Part shown: one piece after another, positions 430 to 32,095 of the stretch
Layout of the letters: each line of letters opens with the position of its first letter
Position numbering within the stretch: position 1 is the first letter of the stretch
Assembly: GCA_964500725.1 (NCBI GenBank)
Contig: CAZCNP010000006.1
Location: 3,634 to 67,633, forward strand
Reading direction: 5' to 3'
From: an uncultured Gammaproteobacteria bacterium
Lineage (GTDB): Bacteria > Patescibacteriota > Microgenomatia > Daviesbacterales > UBA10151
Length of the DNA: 64,000 nt
Notes under the pieces: generated by a model
Database searches by the model: none
What the model saw: only the letters and a program-made list of their open reading frames with translations
What the model was told of the DNA's origin: nothing
Made by a program: the position numbers and the translations under genes

Positions 430-1788
430 TCAAGTTTTTTGAGAAAGCCTAATATCAACCCTTTCCATATCTCTTGGGAAAAGACTAGCCTCTCTCACAT
501 TAGAAAGATTCAGAACATGCATCGTCACTCGCTCCAGTCCAAAAGAGAATCCTCCTTCTGGGGGCATACCAAATTCAAAAGCCTGAAGATACATTTTAAA
601 ACTATCAGTATTCATTCCCCTACTTTTAATACTAGCGACAAGCTGCTGATAATCATTAATTCTCTGACTACCACTTAAAATTTCCAAACCCCTGAATAAT
701 AAATCATAACTTAGACTATATTCTGGATTTTGGGGATCTGGCATGGTGTAAAAAGGTTTTGCTGCAGTAGGAAAATGGGTAATAGTAACAAAATCACTAT
801 TATGCTTATTTCTGGACCATTTACATAAATCAATTTCATCCTGTGGGGTTAAATCTTTTTCCTTTCTATTATCGCGCCCAAATTCTTTATAGATAACCTC
901 TTGAGCTTCTCTTAAACTCAGTCTTGGAATTTTTCCTGAAAGCACTTTTTCAACACTAAATTCAGTTAGAGTATCTTCACATTCTTCCTCAGCCACTTTT
1001 AACATTTTAACTGCCACCCCTTCTAGTATATCTAACAAGTCTGTAAATTTAATAAAGCCCACTTCAATATCCATCTGAGTGCTTTCTGTTAAGTGTCTTG
1101 TAGTGACTGAGGGTTCTGCCCTGTAAGCTTTAGCTATTGTAAAAACTCTTTCAAATACTGGTATAAGCATTTGTTTATACAGTTGCGGACTCTGAGACAA
1201 ATAAGCTTTATGTTCAAAGTAATCTACCTTAAAAACTTCCGCTCCACCCTCAGTTGCTCCTGCCACTATTGTCGGCACAACAATCTCCGTACAACCTAAT
1301 TCATAGGCTGCTTGTCTAAATCCGGCAAGCAAACTTGATTGGACTTTAAAAATAGCCTTTACCTTAGGATGGCGCAAAGTAAGCGAGCGATAATCAAGAA
1401 GTGTAGGTAATTGCAAATCTAACTCTTTTGCTCCCATATCAAAAGGCAATTCTGCTGCCTCAGATAATACCTCAATATTTTCTGCAGAAATTTCAATCTC
1501 ACCTGTAGGAATATTCTTATTGACCAAATGCTCGGGTCTTTTATTAACTTTACCAGTTATACAAACTACATCTTGAGGGTGCAAATCCGGAGCTATTTCC
1601 TTGGTAGCTACTACCTGTATTACAGCTGACCTATCAGATACATCCAAAAATAAAATTTTCCCATGATCCCTTCGCACTTGTACCCATCCGTAAATATTAA
1701 CCTGCTCGCCAACTTTTTTATTACAATCTAAAATTAAGGTTCTATCCATATCCTCTGCATCATAACAGGAGCGTGTATAAATTGACAA
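430..1788 (-). CDS. aspS: aspartate--tRNA ligase, archaeal/eukaryal-type class II
   Basis: LSQSPQLYKQML, motif 2 FRAE...TRHLTE and motif 3 GGFSFGLERV fit AspRS rather than AsnRS. Track start is TTG at 1788; in-frame ATG at 1749 (MDRTLILD) is the more likely start. Confidence 0.8.
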   Translation of the reverse strand: MSIYTRSCYDAEDMDRTLILDCNKKVGEQVNIYGWVQVRRDHGKILFLDVSDRSAVIQVVATKEIAPDLHPQDVVCITGKVNKRPEHLVNKNIPTGEIEISAENIEVLSEAAELPFDMGAKELDLQLPTLLDYRSLTLRHPKVKAIFKVQSSLLAGFRQAAYELGCTEIVVPTIVAGATEGGAEVFKVDYFEHKAYLSQSPQLYKQMLIPVFERVFTIAKAYRAEPSVTTRHLTESTQMDIEVGFIKFTDLLDILEGVAVKMLKVAEEECEDTLTEFSVEKVLSGKIPRLSLREAQEVIYKEFGRDNRKEKDLTPQDEIDLCKWSRNKHNSDFVTITHFPTAAKPFYTMPDPQNPEYSLSYDLLFRGLEILSGSQRINDYQQLVASIKSRGMNTDSFKMYLQAFEFGMPPEGGFSFGLERVTMHVLNLSNVREASLFPRDMERVDIRLSQKT

Positions 1789-1815
1789 GATGCAGGCTAG
1801 ATGCTAAGATTTAAA

Positions 1816-2117
1816 TACAATTAAATATTTTAAATCCGTTAATCTGGAAGGTTGGAACCAGGTAGGAGAGCAAAAGTATGCTACAGAGGCAAAACTGTAA
1901 AAGATCAGCAACATGTGTCGAAGTTTCGGAGCATGTCATGAATAAGGTTAACTTATTCCTTTTTGACATCCCTGGCGACAGGGATTTTTTAATGGCAATA
2001 AGTTAATAAAACAAGGTGGCACCGCCTAATCTTGTAAGCAGAGCTTTCCTTTTGCTTTGCACAACATAGACCCTTGTTAGATTACGAAATATCGTAGTCT
2101 GACAAGGGCTTTTTTTG
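1816..2117 (+). promoter_or_regulatory. T-box-like leader RNA (copy 1): stem III hairpin, T-box sequence, antiterminator and intrinsic terminator
   Basis: ACAAGG-UGGCACC-GCC (2011-2026) resembles T-box consensus AGGGUGGNACCGCG. AACAAGG (2010-2016) can pair CCUUGUU (2072-2078), which overlaps terminator CCCUUGU(2071-77)/ACAAGGG(2102-08)+U7. Stem III at 1970-1983. Confidence 0.5.
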
Positions 2118-2148: not shown

Positions 2149-2484
2149 ATGACAAGATGTGATATGGAACAATTTAATGAATTACTAGGTCAGACTATAG
2201 CTACAATAAATGAGAGTACCCATACTGTAACTGGTATCAATCTAAATGGCCATCCCGAACAAAGAGGAGTATACAAAGGCTTAACAAGAGAAGGCGAAAT
2301 CATTTTGATCCAAGATACTCTTGTTAATTCTCCAATAACCAGAGGTATGATTATTAGAGATAAGGTTATCGTAAAAACAGTAGGCCTAGGAAGAAGTAGG
2401 ATTTTAAGAAAAATAACTGGTATAGATCTTATGAAAGGCTTTCTTGGATGTCAGCGATATTTTCAAACAAATACAGAAGGATAA
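2149..2484 (+). CDS. hypothetical small protein; N-terminus resembles an AbrB/MazE/SpoVT swapped-hairpin motif; paralog of 26616..26828
   Basis: RBS AGGGAGGAGG at 2131-2140 then ATG at 2149 (track starts at GTG 2140). N-terminal motif EQFNELLGQTIATI is shared with the other T-box-associated ORF (MRQFDQVGQTVPTI). Confidence 0.45.
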   Translation: MTRCDMEQFNELLGQTIATINESTHTVTGINLNGHPEQRGVYKGLTREGEIILIQDTLVNSPITRGMIIRDKVIVKTVGLGRSRILRKITGIDLMKGFLGCQRYFQTNTEG

Positions 2485-2520: not shown

Positions 2521-4359
2521 ATGGAAAACTTGGAGAAAATTGCAAAACTTATCAGGTATTTTATTTTAGTTTCTACCACTGAGGCAGGCTCGGGGCATGT
2601 TACATCATCTTTATCTGCAACAGATCTAATGACTGTTTTGTTATTTGATGGATTTTTTAAATTTGATGTAAAAAACCCTCAAAATCCAAATAACGATAGG
2701 TTAATCTTTTCCAAAGGCCATGCCTCCCCTCTTTTCTATTCTCTCTTTGCTGCAGCTGGAGCAATTACTGAAACAGAACTTAAAACATTAAGAAAATTTG
2801 GCAGTAGGTTAGAAGGACATCCTACTATGCTGTTTCCCTTTACCGAAGCTCCTACTGGCTCTTTAGGTCAAGGTTTATCTATTGGATTAGGCATGGCACT
2901 TTCTGCAAAATATCTAGATAAATTGCCTTTTAAAACTTATGTTTTGTTAGGAGATTCCGAGATGGCAGAAGGCTCTGTCTGGGAAGCAATTCAACTAGCT
3001 GCACATTACCAATTAGATAATTTAATTGGAATTTTGGACGTTAACCGTTTAGGCCAACGAGGGCAAACAATGTATGGTCACAATATTAAAGATTATGAAA
3101 AAAGAATTGCTGCATTCGGGTGGCAGACAATAGCAATCGACGGGCACTCGCTAAAAGAAATCCGAGGAGCTTTTAAAAAAGCTCAAGGTATGAAAGGTGT
3201 TCCAATAATGATTATTGCCAAAACTTTAAAAGGCAAAGGTATTTCGTTTTTAGAAGACAAGGATGACTGGCATGGCAAAGCTTTAAAACCTGAAGAGCTA
3301 GAAAAGGCGCTAGCAGAATTAGGTCCTATTGATAAAAAGCTTACAGGAAAAATAACCATGCCCCCTAAATTTAAAGATCAGAAATTAAAAGCTAAAGTTT
3401 CAACCCAAGATTCAAAAACGAACTACCAACTAGGAGAAAACATTGCTACTAGAAAAGCTTATGGAAATGCCTTAGTTAGAATTTATCCTCAATTTCCTAA
3501 CCTGGTTGTGTTGGATGCAGAAGTCTCGAACTCTACTTTTGCAGATATATTTAAAAAAGCTTACCCGGAGAGATTTTTTGAAATGTATATTGCAGAACAA
3601 AACATGGTCGGCACGGCTTTGGGTCTAGCAAGACAAGATAAGATTCCTTTTGTTTCAACCTTTGCTGCTTTTTTTAGCAGGGCTTTTGATCAGATTCGGA
3701 TGAGTCAATACGCAGATACTAATATTAAGTTTATTGGCTCTCATGCTGGAGTATCAATTGGTGAAGATGGCGCTTCTCAGATGGGTTTGGAAGATATTGC
3801 TATATTTAGAAGCCTATTAAATAGTGTTATTTTATACCCTTCAGATGCTGTTTCCACTGAAAAATTACTTACTGAAGCTGCCAAACACAAAGGAAATGTT
3901 TATATTCGCACTACCAGAAAAGACACTCCAATTTTATATCCAAATAACGAACAATTTCCAATTGGCGGGAGCAAGATTTTAAAAAGTAGTAATAAAGATC
4001 TTGTAACTGTAATTGGAGCAGGCATAACTCTACATGAAGCTTTAGCTGCATATGAACAACTAGCTAAAGAAAATATCTTAATTAGAGTAATTGATCTTTA
4101 CAGCATCAAACCTTTAGATATTAAAACTTTAGTAAAGGCATCACAAGAAACACAAGCAATTATTACCGTTGAGGATCACTTCGAGCAAGGAGGCATAGGT
4201 GAAGCTGTTTCTTCTACTCTTTCTGGTCATAAGACAAAAGTGTATTCCTTGGCAGTTAGAAAAATGCCAAGAAGTGGAAAACCAGCTGAGCTTTTGGAAT
4301 ATGAAGAAATATCTGCAAGTGCAATTATACAAAAAGTAAAAGAAATTATTGCATTTTAA
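2521..4359 (+). CDS. tkt: transketolase
   Basis: 612 aa with GHxxSxxS TPP-binding N-terminal motif (SGHVTSSLSATDLM), GDSEMAEG, and pyrimidine-binding and C-terminal domains. Confidence 0.9.
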   Translation: MENLEKIAKLIRYFILVSTTEAGSGHVTSSLSATDLMTVLLFDGFFKFDVKNPQNPNNDRLIFSKGHASPLFYSLFAAAGAITETELKTLRKFGSRLEGHPTMLFPFTEAPTGSLGQGLSIGLGMALSAKYLDKLPFKTYVLLGDSEMAEGSVWEAIQLAAHYQLDNLIGILDVNRLGQRGQTMYGHNIKDYEKRIAAFGWQTIAIDGHSLKEIRGAFKKAQGMKGVPIMIIAKTLKGKGISFLEDKDDWHGKALKPEELEKALAELGPIDKKLTGKITMPPKFKDQKLKAKVSTQDSKTNYQLGENIATRKAYGNALVRIYPQFPNLVVLDAEVSNSTFADIFKKAYPERFFEMYIAEQNMVGTALGLARQDKIPFVSTFAAFFSRAFDQIRMSQYADTNIKFIGSHAGVSIGEDGASQMGLEDIAIFRSLLNSVILYPSDAVSTEKLLTEAAKHKGNVYIRTTRKDTPILYPNNEQFPIGGSKILKSSNKDLVTVIGAGITLHEALAAYEQLAKENILIRVIDLYSIKPLDIKTLVKASQETQAIITVEDHFEQGGIGEAVSSTLSGHKTKVYSLAVRKMPRSGKPAELLEYEEISASAIIQKVKEIIAF

Positions 4360-4488
4360 TTATTACTGCTGTATAATTTTTTAATTGTTATGAATATATT
4401 AAAACAAAGCAACTATTTTTGGTTTTATTTTACTTCCCCAAGGGAGGCTAGCTAAGGCTATTTAAAAATAAGCCAAGAGCTTGTTAAA

Positions 4489-4512
4489 CCTCCCAATTAG
4501 GGAGGTTTTTTT
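4489..4512 (+). terminator. intrinsic terminator after tkt
   Basis: CCTCCC-AATTA-GGGAGG followed by T7. Confidence 0.6.
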
Positions 4513-4535
4513 GTGAGAAAAAAGAGAAAATAAAT

Positions 4536-5357
4536 ATGTACAAAGTTGAAAGAATAGAAAGAAGCGATATAATAAGGCCAGACGAGTTTGCTGTTGCCGG
4601 TGGCCCATGTGCAATAGAAACAGAAAAACAAGCTTTCGCTGTTGCACAGTCTCTTTACGAGATGGAGATACGGATATACAGAGGACAATTATGGAAACCC
4701 CGATCAAGCAGAGATAGTTTTCAAGGCATAGGGCTTGCAGGAATACCATGGTTGAATAGAATTAAAAGAGATTTCGGTATGGTTATTGCTACAGAGATTG
4801 TAGATAAAGACCAGATAAAACCAACCATTGATGTTGTAGACATACCATGGATTGGATCAAGAAATATGCAGAATTTCGAGTTATTAAAGGCTATAGCTGA
4901 TGATGGAACAAACCGACCTGTAATATTAAAAAGAGGCGCATCTGCAACAATTAAAGAGTGGTTACAATCCGCAGATTATATAGGCAGAGAAAGAGTTATA
5001 CTGTGTGAACGTGGAGTAAGAACTTCTACAGACTCAACAAGATACACTCTAGATTTAAATGGGGCTCTGGTGGCAAAACATGATCACGGAATGCCTGTAA
5101 TAGGCGACCCTTCTCATCCGGCCGGCCGTCGTGATTTAGTTTTACCCCTTGCTCGTGCCATTGTAGCCGCTGGGCTGGATGGAATGGTAGTAGAAATACA
5201 TACCAATCCCGAACAAGCCTTATCTGACAAAGATCAACAAATTACTCCTGAGACTTTTCGTGAAATGTTAAGACAAACACGAGCAATATATAAAGTGTTA
5301 AATCCCCCGGTTTTAAATGGCCATCATACTAGACTTTTATCACCTGCATTAGCATAA
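4536..5357 (+). CDS. 3-deoxy-7-phosphoheptulonate (DAHP) synthase, class I-beta type (KDO8P synthase cannot be fully excluded)
   Basis: 273 aa, KPRSS...FQGIGL and GDPSH motifs of the I-beta DAHPS/KDO8PS fold. Adjacency to pheA favours DAHP synthase. Confidence 0.7.
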   Translation: MYKVERIERSDIIRPDEFAVAGGPCAIETEKQAFAVAQSLYEMEIRIYRGQLWKPRSSRDSFQGIGLAGIPWLNRIKRDFGMVIATEIVDKDQIKPTIDVVDIPWIGSRNMQNFELLKAIADDGTNRPVILKRGASATIKEWLQSADYIGRERVILCERGVRTSTDSTRYTLDLNGALVAKHDHGMPVIGDPSHPAGRRDLVLPLARAIVAAGLDGMVVEIHTNPEQALSDKDQQITPETFREMLRQTRAIYKVLNPPVLNGHHTRLLSPALA

Positions 5358-6532: not shown

Positions 6533-6634
6533 ATGTCAAAAGTTATTGTTGTAGATTTAAAAAAAGTTGAAATTTTAGTCAGCCTCCTTATTATGCTCCT
6601 TATTGGAGCATTTCTGGGAGGTCTTTTTAGATAA
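6533..6634 (+). CDS. candidate leader peptide / small hydrophobic peptide (33 aa): MSKVIVVDLKKVEILVSLLIMLLIGAFLGGLFR
   Basis: ORF covers segments 1 and 2 of the downstream four-segment attenuator. Run of Leu/Ile codons (CTC CTT ATT ATG CTC CTT ATT) at 6584-6604. No SD. Confidence 0.35.
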   Translation: MSKVIVVDLKKVEILVSLLIMLLIGAFLGGLFR

Positions 6635-6684
6635 AGTTTATCTAAAAGAAAGGAAATTAAGGCCTCCCAAATGGGAGGTTTTTT
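6582..6684 (+). promoter_or_regulatory. four-segment attenuator (two mutually exclusive hairpin sets) ahead of a three-gene hypothetical operon
   Basis: S1 CCTCC(6583-87):S2 GGAGG(6617-21)+UCUUUUU; S3 CCTCCC(6663-68):S4 GGGAGG(6673-78)+U6. S2 GGGAGG(6616-21) can instead pair S3 CCTCCC. Possible promoter TTGACA at 6473-6478. Confidence 0.45.
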
Positions 6685-6698
6685 ATTGGGAAAAGAAT

Positions 6699-17791: not shown

Positions 17792-18068
17792 GGGTGCCTA
17801 GGAAGTTAGTAAGCCAGATTCTGTTTCTCGATGATCATTTATCTAACGCTCCTTACTTCAACAAATGGGCAAGCAGCCCTGTTGGTTCTAGGATTGCAGC
17901 GGGGAGGATTGCCACGTTTCACCCGAGCATGACCCCGGTTCGTCACTGTTGCTCTAACTAGGCCTTACGGCTTCCAGCTTATGCTGGACACCCTGCTCTA
18001 TGCTGTCTGGACTTTCCTCTTAAGTAGTTTAAAGCTTCTTAAGCGATCATCCTTCTTCCTAGGCAGGT
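17792..18068 (-). ncRNA. rnpB: RNase P RNA (bacterial type-A-like, compact, about 277 nt)
   Basis: Minus strand GAGGAAAGUCCAGACAGCAUAGAGCAGGGUGUCCAGC (CR-I) ... GGGUGAAACGUGG ... ACAGAAUCUGGCUUACUAAC (CR-V). P1 is GCCUAGGAAG/CUUCCUAGGC. Confidence 0.85.
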
Positions 18069-24183: not shown

Positions 24184-24990
24184 TTAATTTCCTTCTGCGC
24201 TAAAATGACGAAATCCGCTACTAATCATTAGTTTCGTTAGAATAATAAGAGTTATAATCCAGGCAGAAATTATTGAAAACCCATACAAAATTTCTGCATT
24301 TCTCATTCCTCCTAAATATATTTTAGAAGGAAAATATATTAGATAAGGGAATGGTGTTATCATCAAAATATTAAATATTTCTCTTGGTAAGATATCTAAG
24401 GGAAACAATCCTCCACCTAAAGTTTCCAGTAATACCCCAATCAAAAATAATGGCCCCCAAGAATTTTCCATCCAAAAAGCTGTCAAAGAAATTAAAAAAT
24501 TTATACAAAAATAGATAACGAGCCCCCCAGCAATTGCAAAAATAAAATATGCTAAAACTTGTATATTTGTTTGAATTATAACTGCAGGCTTTAATAGAAA
24601 AACTAATACGGAAACTTCCCCAATATAAAATAGGATATTAAAAAGCTTATCAGCTATATCCCGCGCTAAATAATATTTTACAAACCCAAGTGGCTTTATT
24701 AAAAAGTTAACTACACTCCCACTATTTATTGAGTCTATTAAATCCGTTACTCTTGTAGATAAAACAATTGCCCGAATCAAAGCAGCAATTAAAATATAAG
24801 TCAGTATAGATGAAGCAGTGTAGCCGAAGATTTGCTTTTGAGACTGAAAAACACTCCACCAGATAAAATACACTAAAAGAAGTTGCATCACAGACCTAAA
24901 TCTCCACAAAACAAAATTAAGTCTATATATTAGATTTTGCTGCCAAGCTATTCTAAAAACAGATATATATTTACCCATCAGATTTACCAA
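24184..24990 (-). CDS. ABC-2 family transporter permease
   Basis: 268 aa, six TM helices. Confidence 0.6.
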   Translation of the reverse strand: MVNLMGKYISVFRIAWQQNLIYRLNFVLWRFRSVMQLLLVYFIWWSVFQSQKQIFGYTASSILTYILIAALIRAIVLSTRVTDLIDSINSGSVVNFLIKPLGFVKYYLARDIADKLFNILFYIGEVSVLVFLLKPAVIIQTNIQVLAYFIFAIAGGLVIYFCINFLISLTAFWMENSWGPLFLIGVLLETLGGGLFPLDILPREIFNILMITPFPYLIYFPSKIYLGGMRNAEILYGFSIISAWIITLIILTKLMISSGFRHFSAEGN

Positions 24991-25291
24991 ATACCCAAGG
25001 TGTTTCCTTTTTATCTTTTTGCACCTTTGGACGATACTTTAATATCTTGTTAACCCTTACCACAGTATCTGTCCCAACACCAACCATTTTTGCAATTTTT
25101 CTAACCGGTAACCCCTTCTCTAAGAGACTTCTAATTTGAAACCGGTTCCTTAGCATCTTCCATTCTGATAAGGTTAATAATTCCTTTAAAATTTCTGTTG
25201 GCACTTCAATATCTTTACCCTGCCCTGGCTTACTCACAGCTAAGTTACCTTTCTTCTTTATTACTGAATATTTGTCTGACGATATCCTCAA
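24971..25291 (-). CDS. TrpR-like YerC/YecD family HTH protein
   Basis: LTLSEWKMLRNRFQIRSLLEKGLPVRKIAKMVGVGTDTVVRV matches the YerC/YecD signature. Track start is TTG at 25291; GTG at 25239 would avoid the 47-nt overlap with the ATPase. Confidence 0.5.
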   Translation of the reverse strand: MRISSDKYSVIKKKGNLAVSKPGQGKDIEVPTEILKELLTLSEWKMLRNRFQIRSLLEKGLPVRKIAKMVGVGTDTVVRVNKILKYRPKVQKDKKETPWVFGKSDG

Positions 25292-26564: not shown

Positions 26565-26615
26565 ATGAATATGGATAAATTTACCAAATGTTCTCCTGTT
26601 TAGCAAGCCCCAAAT

Positions 26616-26828
26616 CTATATTCCTTGCATCTTCTCTTTAAGTTTAAACTCCAGAAACTCTCTCACTCTTTTATCGGGTTGATCCTCTTTACCAAAGGCT
26701 TTAACTAATGCATAAGTAAATGTCTCAACTCTATCTGCAGGGACGCCCAATCTTTCCACCAAACTTTCAATTGTGGGAACAGTTTGACCAACCTGATCAA
26801 ATTGTCGCATTCCATTTCTTTCTAACAT
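26616..26828 (-). CDS. small AbrB/MazE/SpoVT-like protein (70 aa), directly downstream of T-box-like leader copy 2
   Basis: GAGGAGG RBS then ATG 26828 (track start 26849 abuts the terminator U-tract). MRQFDQVGQTVPTIESLVERLGV parallels AbrB RKVDELGRVVIPIELRRTLGI. Confidence 0.45.
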   Translation of the reverse strand: MLERNGMRQFDQVGQTVPTIESLVERLGVPADRVETFTYALVKAFGKEDQPDKRVREFLEFKLKEKMQGI

Positions 26829-26849: not shown

Positions 26850-27113
26850 AAAAAAGCCCTTGTAAATCCCTAAGATATTCTTAGAAACTTACAAGGGCCT
26901 TCAAAAGGCGGTGCCACCTTGCTTTAAGTTTTTACATAAAAAATCCTCCAATTACGGAGGAGTACTGTAGAAACTTAATCTTACAGCGCTCCGTTGCCGA
27001 CACGCTTATTGTATTTATACAGTTCAATTTCTGTCACAGTATTTCTTTGCCGACTGACCTGTGCAGCTTGTCTATTGCGATAGACTCAAACGCTTTTAAA
27101 ATATTTAATTGTT
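26850..27113 (-). promoter_or_regulatory. T-box-like leader RNA (copy 2) with canonical antiterminator (A1 / UGGNACC bulge / A2) overlapping an intrinsic terminator
   Basis: Minus strand CAAGG-UGGCACC-GCC-UUUUGAA-GGC-CCUUGU (26921-26891), then terminator GCCCUUGUAA...UUACAAGGGC+U6 (26898-26850). Stem III CCUCCGUAAUUGGAGG at 26959-26944. Confidence 0.55.
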
Positions 27114-27144
27114 GATAATAGTATAACAGGAGAAAGTTAGAGTG

Positions 27145-28500
27145 TCAAACAGTCATGGTACTTTCAGTATAACGTGTTTCTCTAACTGCTGTTATTTTAA
27201 CAGCTCCTGGCACCATTACTTCTTTAGAAATTCGCTCAGCTATATCATGAACAAGCTTTGGCAGCTCATCATCTGAAATTCTCTCTGGAATAACAATAAC
27301 TCTTACTTCTCTTCCTGCTTGCACTGCAAAAGCTTTCTCCACTGCATCAAAAGAATTAGCAATATTTTCTATATCACCCATTCTTTTTATATAATCTCCA
27401 ACATTCTCATGTCTGGCTCCGGGCCTTCCTCCAGATATAGAATCAGCAATATATACTAAGATTGACTCCACAGCAGAAAAAGGCTTATCTTCATGATGCT
27501 CTGCTATACAATTGATTACCTTCTCCGGCAGATTAAATTTCTTAGCAAGCTGTACTCCTTTTTCAACATGAGTACCTTCATCTCCTTCTGTCACAACTTT
27601 TCCTATATCATGTAGCAAGCATCCAAGCCTTACCACATTCACATCTGCTCCAATCTCCTTTGCCAAAGCAATACCAATTTGGGTTTCCTCTTGAGTATGC
27701 AAAATTAAATTCTGTCCATAAGAGTATCTGTATTTAAATCTACCAATAATATCAATAAGCTCTACTGGCAAATTATAAACTCCTACATCATGACACAGCT
27801 TTTCTCCTGCCTCTCTCATTAACTTGTTAATATCCTCTTGCGTTTTTTCAACAATTTCTTCTATTCTTTGAGGTTGAATTCTGCCATCTTCCATCAACCT
27901 TTCTAAAGAAACTTTGGCAATCTCACGCCTTACTGGATCAAAGGAAGAAAGTATTAAAGTATCTGGAATTTCATCATCCATTACTACATCAACACCTGTA
28001 GCCTGCTCAAAAGTTCTCACATTTCTACCTTCTTTACCAATAATCCTGCCTTTCATTTCTTCATCAGGCAGTTTTACTTTTGAGGTAGTAAACTCTGAAA
28101 TATAATCTGTAACTCCATGTCGCATTGCATCTGCTAAAATATCTTTAGCTTTTTCATCAGCCGTTATTTTTATTTCTTCCTCAGCTTCTTTAATCTTTTT
28201 GGAAATTTCACCAGCAAGTTCCTGGTCTAAATTTTCCAAAAGAATCTTTTGAGCTTCATCTTTTGATAAGGAGGAGGCTTTTTCTAGTTTAGAAACTAAC
28301 TCTTTCCTTGTTTTCTCAAGTTGCTCTAATTTATCATCAATTAATTTTTGTTTTTCAGAAATTTGCCTTTCTCTTTCTTCTAAAATACCTTCTCTTTTTG
28401 CTAGCTCTGCTTCTTTCCTAACAAAATCTCCTCCTGCTGAAGGACTAGTTTGTTGATATGATTGCTGGCTAGACGAAATCGGCTTAAATGTTCTCTGCAT
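27145..28500 (-). CDS. rny: ribonuclease Y (KH + HD domains; no N-terminal TM)
   Basis: N-terminal coiled-coil region, KH domain, and HD motif LLHDIGK. Confidence 0.8.
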   Translation of the reverse strand: MQRTFKPISSSQQSYQQTSPSAGGDFVRKEAELAKREGILEERERQISEKQKLIDDKLEQLEKTRKELVSKLEKASSLSKDEAQKILLENLDQELAGEISKKIKEAEEEIKITADEKAKDILADAMRHGVTDYISEFTTSKVKLPDEEMKGRIIGKEGRNVRTFEQATGVDVVMDDEIPDTLILSSFDPVRREIAKVSLERLMEDGRIQPQRIEEIVEKTQEDINKLMREAGEKLCHDVGVYNLPVELIDIIGRFKYRYSYGQNLILHTQEETQIGIALAKEIGADVNVVRLGCLLHDIGKVVTEGDEGTHVEKGVQLAKKFNLPEKVINCIAEHHEDKPFSAVESILVYIADSISGGRPGARHENVGDYIKRMGDIENIANSFDAVEKAFAVQAGREVRVIVIPERISDDELPKLVHDIAERISKEVMVPGAVKITAVRETRYTESTMTV

Positions 28501-31952: not shown

Positions 31953-32095
31953 AAAAAAACCTCTCAAACTATATGAGAGGTTTAAAGTTTTCCTGTACCA
32001 GACGGTACGGGACACATCTTCCTCTCAGGAATCTGGCACCTTAGGCTTTAAGGTTGCCGGCGTCCGGTAAAACCGGAGCACTCTTGATGTATTTT
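31953..32095 (-). promoter_or_regulatory. SAM-I (S-box) riboswitch with terminator, upstream of metK
   Basis: Minus strand AUCAAGAGUGCUCCGG...CCGGCAACC...AAGGUGCCAGAUUCCUGAGAGGAAGAUG. Terminator CCUCUCA...UGAGAGG+U7 at 31980-31953. Confidence 0.8.

Follow-up and report, generated by a model that had tools for sequence, protein, structure and literature searches.

Which gene does an RNA leader with the marks of a T-box control, and which transfer RNA (tRNA) would it sense, when it stands in front of a small open reading frame (ORF) and hup and not in front of a synthetase or biosynthetic gene? The question is raised by positions 26850-27113, minus strand, of a 64,000-nucleotide (nt) stretch of contig CAZCNP010000006.1 (hereafter the window), from an uncultured bacterium of the Daviesbacterales (Microgenomatia, Patescibacteriota). 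An earlier note had described this segment as the second copy of a T-box-like antiterminator leader controlling an AbrB-like protein and the nucleoid protein HU. T-boxes are the textbook example of an RNA that senses which tRNA it meets and whether that tRNA is charged, and the evidence set out below suggests, with a probability of about 0.85, that the segment works as a T-box riboswitch that attenuates transcription and is specific for tRNA-Arg; its genetic context among relatives is arginine biosynthesis.

The leader occupies most of the 295-nt gap that separates, on the minus strand, the rny stop codon (27147-27145) from the first ATG (26849) of the longest downstream ORF; the rny product carries PF12072 with HD and KH domains and is 70-92% identical to RNase Y of Daviesbacteria metagenome-assembled genomes. 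The gap, the hairpin, the antiterminator and the terminator with U6 are all present as the earlier note had claimed (Table 1), and its assignments of A1, bulge, A2 and terminator prove correct. The hairpin that it called stem-III-like, CCUCC-GUAAUU-GGAGG at 26960-26945, is the inner part of a larger Stem III, from which the A1 strand CAAGG is separated by an AG dinucleotide. A promoter-like site matches the consensus at 11 of 12 positions, plus the TG of an extended -10, and the same layout stands upstream of the other window copy (copy 1) and of the leaders of related loci L002, L177 and L181; a transcript start is predicted near 27113. The ACAAUU...AAAGCG form of the 5' tail is common to many relatives, among which no covarying partner for the tail was found. 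Pairing of its AGCG with a distal CGCU, as a long Stem I, was considered and dropped, and the local GUGUCG...CGGAGC hairpin covaries instead.

The 5' arm of the terminator reuses the 3' strands of A2 and A1 (GGC and CCUUG), and because the two structures share these strands they are mutually exclusive, as the folding check proposed in the earlier note had anticipated; the leader folds with a z-score of -5.3 against shuffled sequence. Since the terminator (-29.4 kcal/mol) is far stronger than the antiterminator (-7.6 to -8.7 kcal/mol), the default state would be off, that is termination, as in known T-boxes. The same terminator/antiterminator layout is found in all relatives examined.

Table 1. 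Window coordinates of the arginine-type leader, the sequences downstream of it and the paralogous leader.
Feature	Position	Strand	Description
Promoter-like site	27120..27148	-	TTGACA 27148-27143 (overlaps rny stop), 17-nt spacer, extended -10 TGnTATACT 27128-27120
5' tail	27095..27111	-	CAAUUAAAUAUUUUAAA; 17 nt, identical in both window copies
Ultrashort Stem I	27066..27093	-	K-turn-like base GC-GUUU-GA...AA-GC and 6-bp hairpin GUCUAU/AUAGAC, apical loop CGCA
Specifier, putative	27079-27077	-	CGC (Arg), followed by conserved purine A27076
Stem II	27035..27063	-	CACAG...CUGUG, purine-rich loop GCAAAGAAAUA; position and A-rich 3' loop conserved
Stem IIA	27034-27019	-	ACAG/CUGU, then AUAA; whole IIA/IIB block 27008..27034
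IIB pseudoknot	27028-27025 with 27011-27008	-	loop AUUG with linker CAAU; complementarity kept in relatives
Extra linker hairpin	26985..27006	-	AGC-GUGUCG-GCAA-CGGAGC-GCU; invariant UGU/GAG internal motif, GNRA loop
Discriminator, 5' part	26924..26982	-	RAG purines AAG 26982-26980, two-tier Stem III 26978-26924
Stem III helices	26961-26944 (inner hairpin)	-	outer helix UUAAGUUU/AAACUUAA; U6 bulge and AUG at 26943-26935
Antiterminator	26892..26921	-	A1 CAAGG 26921-26917 / CCUUG 26896-26892; A2 GCCUU-UUG-AAGGC 26909-26897
T-box bulge	26916-26910	-	UGGCACC, 7 nt, between A1 and A2; UGGC would pair with 3'-GCCA
Intrinsic terminator	26850..26898	-	hairpin of about 20 bp 26898-26856 and U6 26855-26850
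70-aa protein gene (MLERNG...)	26616..26828	-	ribosome-binding site GGAGG 26837-26833
hup promoter-like sequence	26565..26612	-	UUUGGGGCUUGCUAAA-N-UGGUAAAUU; conserved before hup in about 20 leaderless Daviesbacteria loci
Copy 1, paralogous T-box	1783..2116	+	promoter 1783-1811, T-box CAAGGUGGCACCGCC 2012-2026, terminator about 2071-2116 ending in U7

At gathering thresholds, Rfam returns from the 64-kb window only RNase P and a tRNA, and no T-box. In permissive mode the T-box model RF00230, proposed earlier as a check, is the top match in a 701-nt region and is matched over its full length (E = 0.0021), although its 24.7 bits fall far short of the gathering score, 93. The alignment is good over the 3' T-box block and poor over Stem I, so that T-box identity was decided on comparative data. 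Eighty loci were fetched via rny as a synteny sample. In about 20 Daviesbacteria loci hup directly follows rny, and of the 80 only L002 has the leader, with the small ORF, between the two; metagenome DNA was therefore scanned by pattern instead. The pattern CGGAGC-N30-60-UUUUUNAUG-N8-25-RGGUGGNACC yielded 96 loci, of which about 78 are recognised full length (nhmmer) by a hidden Markov model (HMM) built from the three known copies, two in the window and one in L002. The extracted set comprises 79 elements, 72 of them non-identical, with U (44), C (34) or A (1) as the variable bulge base. Support independent of the pattern comes from seven loci reached via the downstream protein and from two extra T-boxes on contigs (L093:431 and L125:1712), all with the same architecture; the loci found through the small protein all carry the leader. 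Run on 20 of the collected loci, the Rfam model gives 97.2 bits for L163, above gathering, and then 64.9 (L122), 49.7 (L095), 41.9 (L082), 41.2 (L159), 38.9 (L115), 33.2 (L132) and about 26 (L119 and L141), and an HMM built from the window-like copies alone also matches L163. With 76 metagenomic homologues and the seven protein-derived loci as stepping stones, the window leader is thus connected to canonical T-boxes and stands at the divergent extreme of a single unbroken family of homologues to which these belong.

The helices of this family covary, including A1, A2 and Stem I, for which covariation had been proposed as a check; together with the homologues and the full-length RF00230 match, this upholds the initial description of a leader of the T-box type that senses tRNA through alternative antiterminator and terminator structures. 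Of the A1/A2 cells in 39 sequences, 98% are paired, a figure to be read for A1 with the caveat that its 3' strand was located by complementarity, and seven of the nine pairs have changed on both sides; such values were not attained in any of 500 shuffles, and pairing in slid controls was 56% at most. Variants include CAAGG/CCUUG, CGAGG/CCUCG and UAAGG/CCUUA for A1 and GCC/GGC, ACG/CGU and GUG/CAC for A2. The MAFFT alignment was out of register for Stem I, most of Stem II and IIB, and those elements were scored by script; for Stem I an automatic hairpin finder, which chose AT-rich promoter hairpins, was replaced by anchored extraction. The pairs at the foot of Stem I covary (GC in 22, CG in two, AU in one), as does the Stem I hairpin in relatives with the same loop (GUUUAC/GUAAAC, GUGCCC/GGGUAC, GUCUAC/GUAGAU). 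Pair 80-92 of Stem IIA is GC in 19 sequences and AU in nine, and the IIB pseudoknot is formed by 15 different complementary loop/linker combinations among relatives, such as UUGG/CCAA, GUC/GAC, GCUUA/UAAGC and GGAU/AUCC beside the AUUG/CAAU of the window. The Stem III layout with its preceding RAG purines is present in 39 of 39 sequences, with 39 distinct outer helices that enclose an inner hairpin, in 21 distinct 5-bp stems, and beside it a bulge of U5-7.

Two of these parts, the linker hairpin and the U-bulged two-tier Stem III, have no positions in the Rfam model; in L163 and L122 the linker hairpin is an insertion relative to RF00230. Its outer stem covaries among relatives, and it is also found in the pattern-independent T-boxes L177, L178, L181, L093:431 and L125:1712. 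The hairpin, with tandem non-canonical pairs (5'-UGU/3'-GAG) and usually a GNRA loop, occurs in every T-box of the set, the long-Stem-I members included; it sits between the IIA/B pseudoknot and Stem III, and in L093:431 it seems to replace Stem III altogether. Its interpretation as a K-turn was dropped, the bulged strand being without GA.

Classified by Stem I, about 64 non-redundant relatives fall into 17 with a long stem and a remainder that is mostly ultrashort, both window copies included. The long-stem group has an AGAGA bulge, a GGUUGGUG distal loop and a UAC specifier, followed in several cases by tRNA-Tyr and tyrS, and its members (for example L163, L110 and L149) possess the elbow-docking platform. 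Both window copies lack the S-turn and the distal interdigitated double T-loop platform (IDTM; AGAGA bulge and UGxRA loop); a long Stem I with platform is the mark of the canonical subclass that acts on transcription and is not common to all T-boxes. In the ultrashort group, where a K-turn-like base GC-GUU-GA...GA-GC carries a 5-6-bp hairpin, a triplet with a purine after it lies in the apical loop, and the triplet predicts the downstream operon. UUGGAA and UUGGGA loops (UGG) lie upstream of trpE/G/D/C, trpB/A, trpS or a tRNA-Trp gene, and CAUCCUA, UUUCCCG and CCUA loops (CCY) upstream of prolyl-tRNA synthetase (ProRS), ornithine cyclodeaminase, proB-like and proC-like genes. Loops with CGC, that is GUCGCGA or CGCA, precede argB and ornithine carbamoyltransferase (OTCase, argF) in L100, OTCase in L108, L133, L177 and L178, the argininosuccinate synthase gene argG in L141, and argH-like lyases in L142 and L127. 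From its CGCA loop, the most likely ligand of the window leader is tRNA-Arg.

The T-box bulge bears on the same question. The earlier note had reasoned that UGGC would pair with the end of a tRNA with discriminator G73, and this logic holds in relatives with a visible tRNA gene: tRNA-Trp with G73 goes with UGGC in L099, L122, L124 and L129, and with A73 goes with UGGU in L125, as do tRNA-Tyr and tRNA-Pro with A73; the exceptions are L146 (a G-U pair) and L158 (UGGA). The amino acids that it listed on this basis did not include Arg, the best-supported specificity, and the host tRNA-Arg is predicted to have G73, pairing with UGGC.

Several further observations concern the Stem I types and their tRNAs. 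The window leader has a Stem I of the CGCA type, which elsewhere stands before argG and argH, unlike the GUCGCGA type of the syntenic L002, L177 and L181. On a number of the metagenome contigs a tRNA gene that matches the specifier begins about 10-150 nt after the T-box terminator: tRNA-Tyr GUA behind a UAC specifier in L110, L117, L149, L156, L160 and L175, with the matching synthetase gene further downstream, and tRNA-Trp CCA behind UGG in L124, L125, L146 and L158. We know of no earlier description of a T-box that gates transcription of the gene for its own ligand. On the contig of L124, where the tRNA-Trp gene follows a Trp T-box, positions 1456-1650 match a group I intron (67 bits, gathering 50).

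A plausible course of events can be outlined for the window leader. Transcription would start at the promoter overlapping the rny stop codon, and the nascent RNA would fold in the order ultrashort Stem I, Stem II, IIA/B pseudoknot, linker hairpin and two-tier Stem III. The anticodon of tRNA-Arg (GCG or ICG) would pair with CGC in the apical loop, and Stem II with the pseudoknot may buttress the codon-anticodon duplex by analogy with short-Stem-I actinobacterial T-boxes, a role proposed because a distal platform that could hold the elbow of the tRNA is missing. The 3'-GCCA end of an uncharged tRNA would then pair with UGGC in the 7-nt bulge and stabilise the weak A1/A2 antiterminator, so that RNA polymerase could read into the 70-aa ORF and probably on into hup; with the tRNA charged or absent, the stronger terminator would form and transcription would end at 26855-26850.

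Several points weigh against this interpretation. The RF00230 score lies far under the gathering score, and since CGGAGC, UUUUUNAUG and RGGUGGNACC were fixed by the search pattern, their conservation is partly a collection effect. The K-turn-like base has AA in its 3' strand, where most relatives have GA, and a bulge of 4 nt, although the layout fits and the base covaries. The apical loop (CGCA) is itself only 4 nt long, and the closing U-A and A-U pairs must open to present the codon. The specifier search proposed earlier supplied the codon and not its tRNA, there being no tRNA-Arg gene in the 64-kb window or in any collected locus. With the linked argF gone from this locus, the element might be in decay. 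Beside the bulge, A2 has a G-C pair in place of the G-U wobble to which a review assigns the part of steric sensor (PMC7583486). Finally, transcriptional T-boxes are said to 'generally require' the elbow-binding platform that is absent here (PMC7583486, section 6.2).

Whether the T-box serves mainly to place an AbrB-like DNA-binding regulator and HU under tRNA-charging control, as the earlier note supposed, depends on the two genes behind it, and on inspection of both appears unlikely. The real start of the first is most likely the second ATG (26828-26826), because of the GGAGG in front of it and because the family aligns from M-[VIL]-E-R; the terminator, which the earlier note had abutting the ATG, thus adjoins only the first ATG, which is not conserved, and 13 nt separate its U-run from the ribosome-binding site, which is not sequestered. 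The 70-aa product is uncharacterised, so that a regulatory role is possible, but it has no AbrB/SpoVT match in Pfam, where nothing is found at E <= 1 except a 12.6-bit match to Sigma70_r3. AlphaFold2 predicts, with a mean pLDDT of 75.5, an all-alpha bundle of three helices, unlike the N-domains of AbrB proteins, which are rich in beta structure and have a swapped-hairpin fold, and Foldseek returns no match to this model in the PDB with E below 1. A word-indexed protein search returned only the query itself, and an exhaustive phmmer search of a 5.8-billion-protein database found about 11 family members, all labelled hypothetical, after matches of short stretches to very long proteins (879-5542 aa) had been set aside as repeat or low-complexity noise. 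Every family member with upstream DNA inspected has an Arg-type T-box in front, and this small family of hypothetical proteins appears to be genetically tied to arginine control.

The second gene, hup, fares no better as a target. A terminator between the small ORF and hup was looked for in the window and none was found, so read-through probably reaches hup; against its being the controlled gene, as had been proposed, stands its own promoter-like sequence, conserved in about 20 leaderless Daviesbacteria relatives and lying inside the 3' end of argF in L177, because of which hup is at most a read-through passenger. Behind the small ORF in L108 and L178 comes OTCase, not hup, and the same leader and small ORF directly upstream of OTCase in relatives speak against the idea of a regulon outside amino-acid metabolism. 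Near hup, downstream of an ABC-transporter ATPase, 24971-25291 (-) encodes a 106-aa Trp-repressor-family protein (PF01371, YerC/YecD-like).

Slightly less likely again is that the leader is a relic, in which argF was deleted and a constitutive terminator without regulatory role was left in front of a drifting small ORF. The gene orders give this idea its force. In L177 the order is rny, the same promoter, the Arg T-box, then the small ORF, OTCase and hup, with the start of OTCase overlapped by the end of the small ORF, and in L108 and L178 it is T-box, small ORF and OTCase; in the window, L002 and L181 it is rny, T-box, small ORF and hup, and no OTCase gene was found anywhere in the 64-kb window. 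Since OTCase stands behind the small ORF in relatives, the window arrangement is read as derived: argF would have been lost at the locus, with the T-box and an intact small ORF kept. The IIB pairing of only 4 bp and the apical loop of only 4 nt would also suit a relic. Against a relic, every module is intact and every helix complementary, the promoter keeps its near-consensus sequence, the small ORF retains its ribosome-binding site and the family's invariant residues in all three argF-less lineages, and the leaders of the window and L002 differ by compensatory, not disruptive, changes.

The loop could in principle be read one nucleotide out of the register assumed here, giving GCA for the window and GCG for loops of the GUCGCGA type, which would make the ligand tRNA-Ala. 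Both loop types do have a GCR in frame with a purine behind it, and the 7-nt proline loops carry their codon at positions 4-6, where GUCGCGA reads GCG; yet the genes downstream are argB, argF, argG and argH-like, never alaS or alanine genes. The 4-nt-loop analogue in L116 (CCUAU-CCUA-AUAGG), which precedes ProRS, places the codon at loop positions 1-3, and so reads the window loop as CGC (Arg), not GCA (Ala). The bulge points the same way: its variable base is C in about half of the class and U in the rest, and since tRNA-Arg has A73 or G73 as discriminator and tRNA-Ala A73, this fits Arg better than Ala. An alanine specificity is accordingly very unlikely. Least likely of all is an ordinary intrinsic terminator after rny that happens to hold UGGCACC. 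GGTGGNACC with one mismatch does occur 20 times in the window against 16 expected from shuffled sequence, and the Rfam score is below threshold, but such a chance resemblance is refuted by full-length homology in more than 80 loci, by covariation of a pseudoknot and of five helices, by a consensus promoter that lies between the leader and the rny stop, and by the agreement of codons with downstream genes.

The arginine leader can be compared with several described systems. Arg T-boxes of Firmicutes (argS and arginine genes), known from comparative surveys by Vitreschak in 2008 and Gutierrez-Preciado in 2009, reportedly have a canonical long Stem I; the window leader would share with them the Arg specificity and arginine-related genes turned on when tRNA-Arg is uncharged, unlike them in that its first gene encodes a small hypothetical protein and the linked argF is missing from the locus. 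The short or 'ultrashort' Stem I of actinobacterial ileS leaders is said in later reviews to go back to Sherwood, Grundy and Henkin in 2015. With Class I T-boxes (RF00230; Bacillus subtilis tyrS and glyQS) the leader has in common a codon-type specifier followed by a purine, Stem II, a IIA/B pseudoknot with F-box-like CNGUAA, what may be a K-turn at the base of Stem I, RAG purines before Stem III, the UGGNACC bulge flanked by A1 and A2, an intrinsic terminator with U-run whose formation excludes the antiterminator, and amino-acid-related target genes. It differs from them in a Stem I reduced to a 6-bp hairpin without S-turn, AG bulge or distal loop (IDTM), in a specifier placed in an apical and not an internal loop, in the extra linker hairpin (UGU/GAG, GNRA) and two-tier Stem III with U5-7 bulge, and in an A2 pair next to the bulge that is mostly G-C, not G-U, in leader and relatives.

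A short Stem I with apical-loop specifier has been described for translational T-boxes of actinobacteria (PMC7583486, sections 3 and 6.2; PMC11297988), in which the lack of an elbow contact is made good by Stem II and the IIA/B pseudoknot (PMC7583486, PMC11297988). Like these ultrashort-Stem-I ileS leaders, the window leader has an apical specifier and no elbow platform and keeps Stem II and IIA/B (PMC7583486, PMC11297988). The ileS leaders act on translation, through an antisequestrator and a sequestrator on the Shine-Dalgarno sequence, whereas here there is a 20-bp intrinsic terminator with U6; the phylum (Microgenomates, of the candidate phyla radiation, CPR), the specificities (Arg, Trp and Pro) and the extra linker hairpin are further differences. 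The leader thus appears to be a transcriptional T-box variant with an apical-loop specifier, whose extra conserved parts are so far found only in these CPR and metagenomic leaders. A full-text literature search returned no paper linking T-boxes with the CPR or Patescibacteria, its coverage being incomplete, so that an earlier description is possible.

The long Stem I and its platform are held to be needed so that the tRNA is captured before RNA polymerase reaches the terminator (PMC7583486, section 6.2; PMC11297988), and a minimal tRNA-decoding stem joined to a transcription terminator is a pairing that reviews treat as disfavoured (PMC7583486, PMC11297988). The dozens of natural Arg, Trp and Pro leaders that seem to join an apical-loop specifier to a strong intrinsic terminator would offer a direct test of this kinetic argument, with the linker hairpin and the U-bulged Stem III as candidate compensating parts. 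A joint reading of these data, put forward tentatively and at somewhat below even odds, is that the leaders form a distinct and undescribed CPR/Microgenomates T-box subclass that attenuates transcription without an elbow platform, the codon lying in the apical loop of a 5-6-bp Stem I; that the stability or kinetic assistance otherwise lacking comes from the linker hairpin and U-bulged Stem III, perhaps as a new tRNA contact or a programmed polymerase pause; and that the Arg version in the window controls only an orphan three-helix protein normally co-transcribed with OTCase. If this were true, the protein might be an accessory factor or a regulator in arginine metabolism, responsive to how far tRNA-Arg is charged. 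More generally, genome-reduced CPR bacteria would keep tRNA-sensing control of the few amino-acid genes that they retain, and because such leaders score under the Rfam threshold they have probably been missed in CPR genome annotation.

The designation of the Arg leader as "copy 2" implied another, and copy 1 was indeed found at about 1818-2116 (+). Its Stem I, UCUGG-AAGGUUGGAA-CCAGG, presents UGG at 1853-1855, and it appears to be a Trp T-box of the same type as the Arg leader, followed by a 111-aa ORF, transketolase, DAHP synthase and prephenate dehydratase. The second exact GGTGGCACC of the window lies within it (2015-2023), its terminator reads CCCUUGU...ACAAGGGC-U7, and the blocks common to both copies are ACAGAnnnnnAACUGUA, GUGUCG, CGGAGC, UUUUUwAUG and uAAArCAAGGUGGCACCGCC. 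The 17-nt 5' tail is identical at 1816-1832 and 27111-27095. The small ORFs behind the two T-boxes are otherwise unrelated, BLASTP between them giving no significant match, and have in common a 17-aa N-terminal motif (MEQFNELLGQTIATINE versus MRQFDQ-VGQTVPTIES), encoded with synonymous differences at 2164-2214 (+) and 26810-26763 (-). This shared motif, the identical 5' tail and the CGCA-type Stem I hint at recombination between T-box cassettes within the genome. Divergent from the copy 1 promoter, 430-1788 (-) encodes a class II AspRS/AsnRS-type synthetase (PF00152 and an OB anticodon-binding domain) without a T-box of its own.

Other candidate RNA elements are found in the window. Inside the operon headed by copy 1, between transketolase (stop at 4359) and DAHP synthase (4536-5357, PF00793), positions 4397-4514 (+) match the Rfam Phe_leader RF01859 at 51.1 bits (gathering 55); a TATAAT box and a 21-codon ORF with an aromatic run (MNILKQSNYFWFYFTSPREAS) are followed there by CUUCCCC/GGGAGG/CCUCCC/GGGAGG-U7, the layout of a classic leader-peptide attenuator, which would be ribosome-mediated and act on aromatic-pathway genes. 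A weaker Phe_leader match (26 bits) at 6571-6688 (+), downstream of prephenate dehydratase, covers a 33-codon hydrophobic ORF and then a CCUCCCAAAUGGGAGG-U6 terminator, and may be driven by the terminator alone. Positions 31975-32095 (-) give a sub-threshold match to the SAM-I/IV riboswitch (34 bits, gathering 41.1). At 17794-18062 (-) the RNase P RNA, of bacterial class A, has 269 nt against a 367-position model (125 bits), which suggests a reduced form of this RNA.

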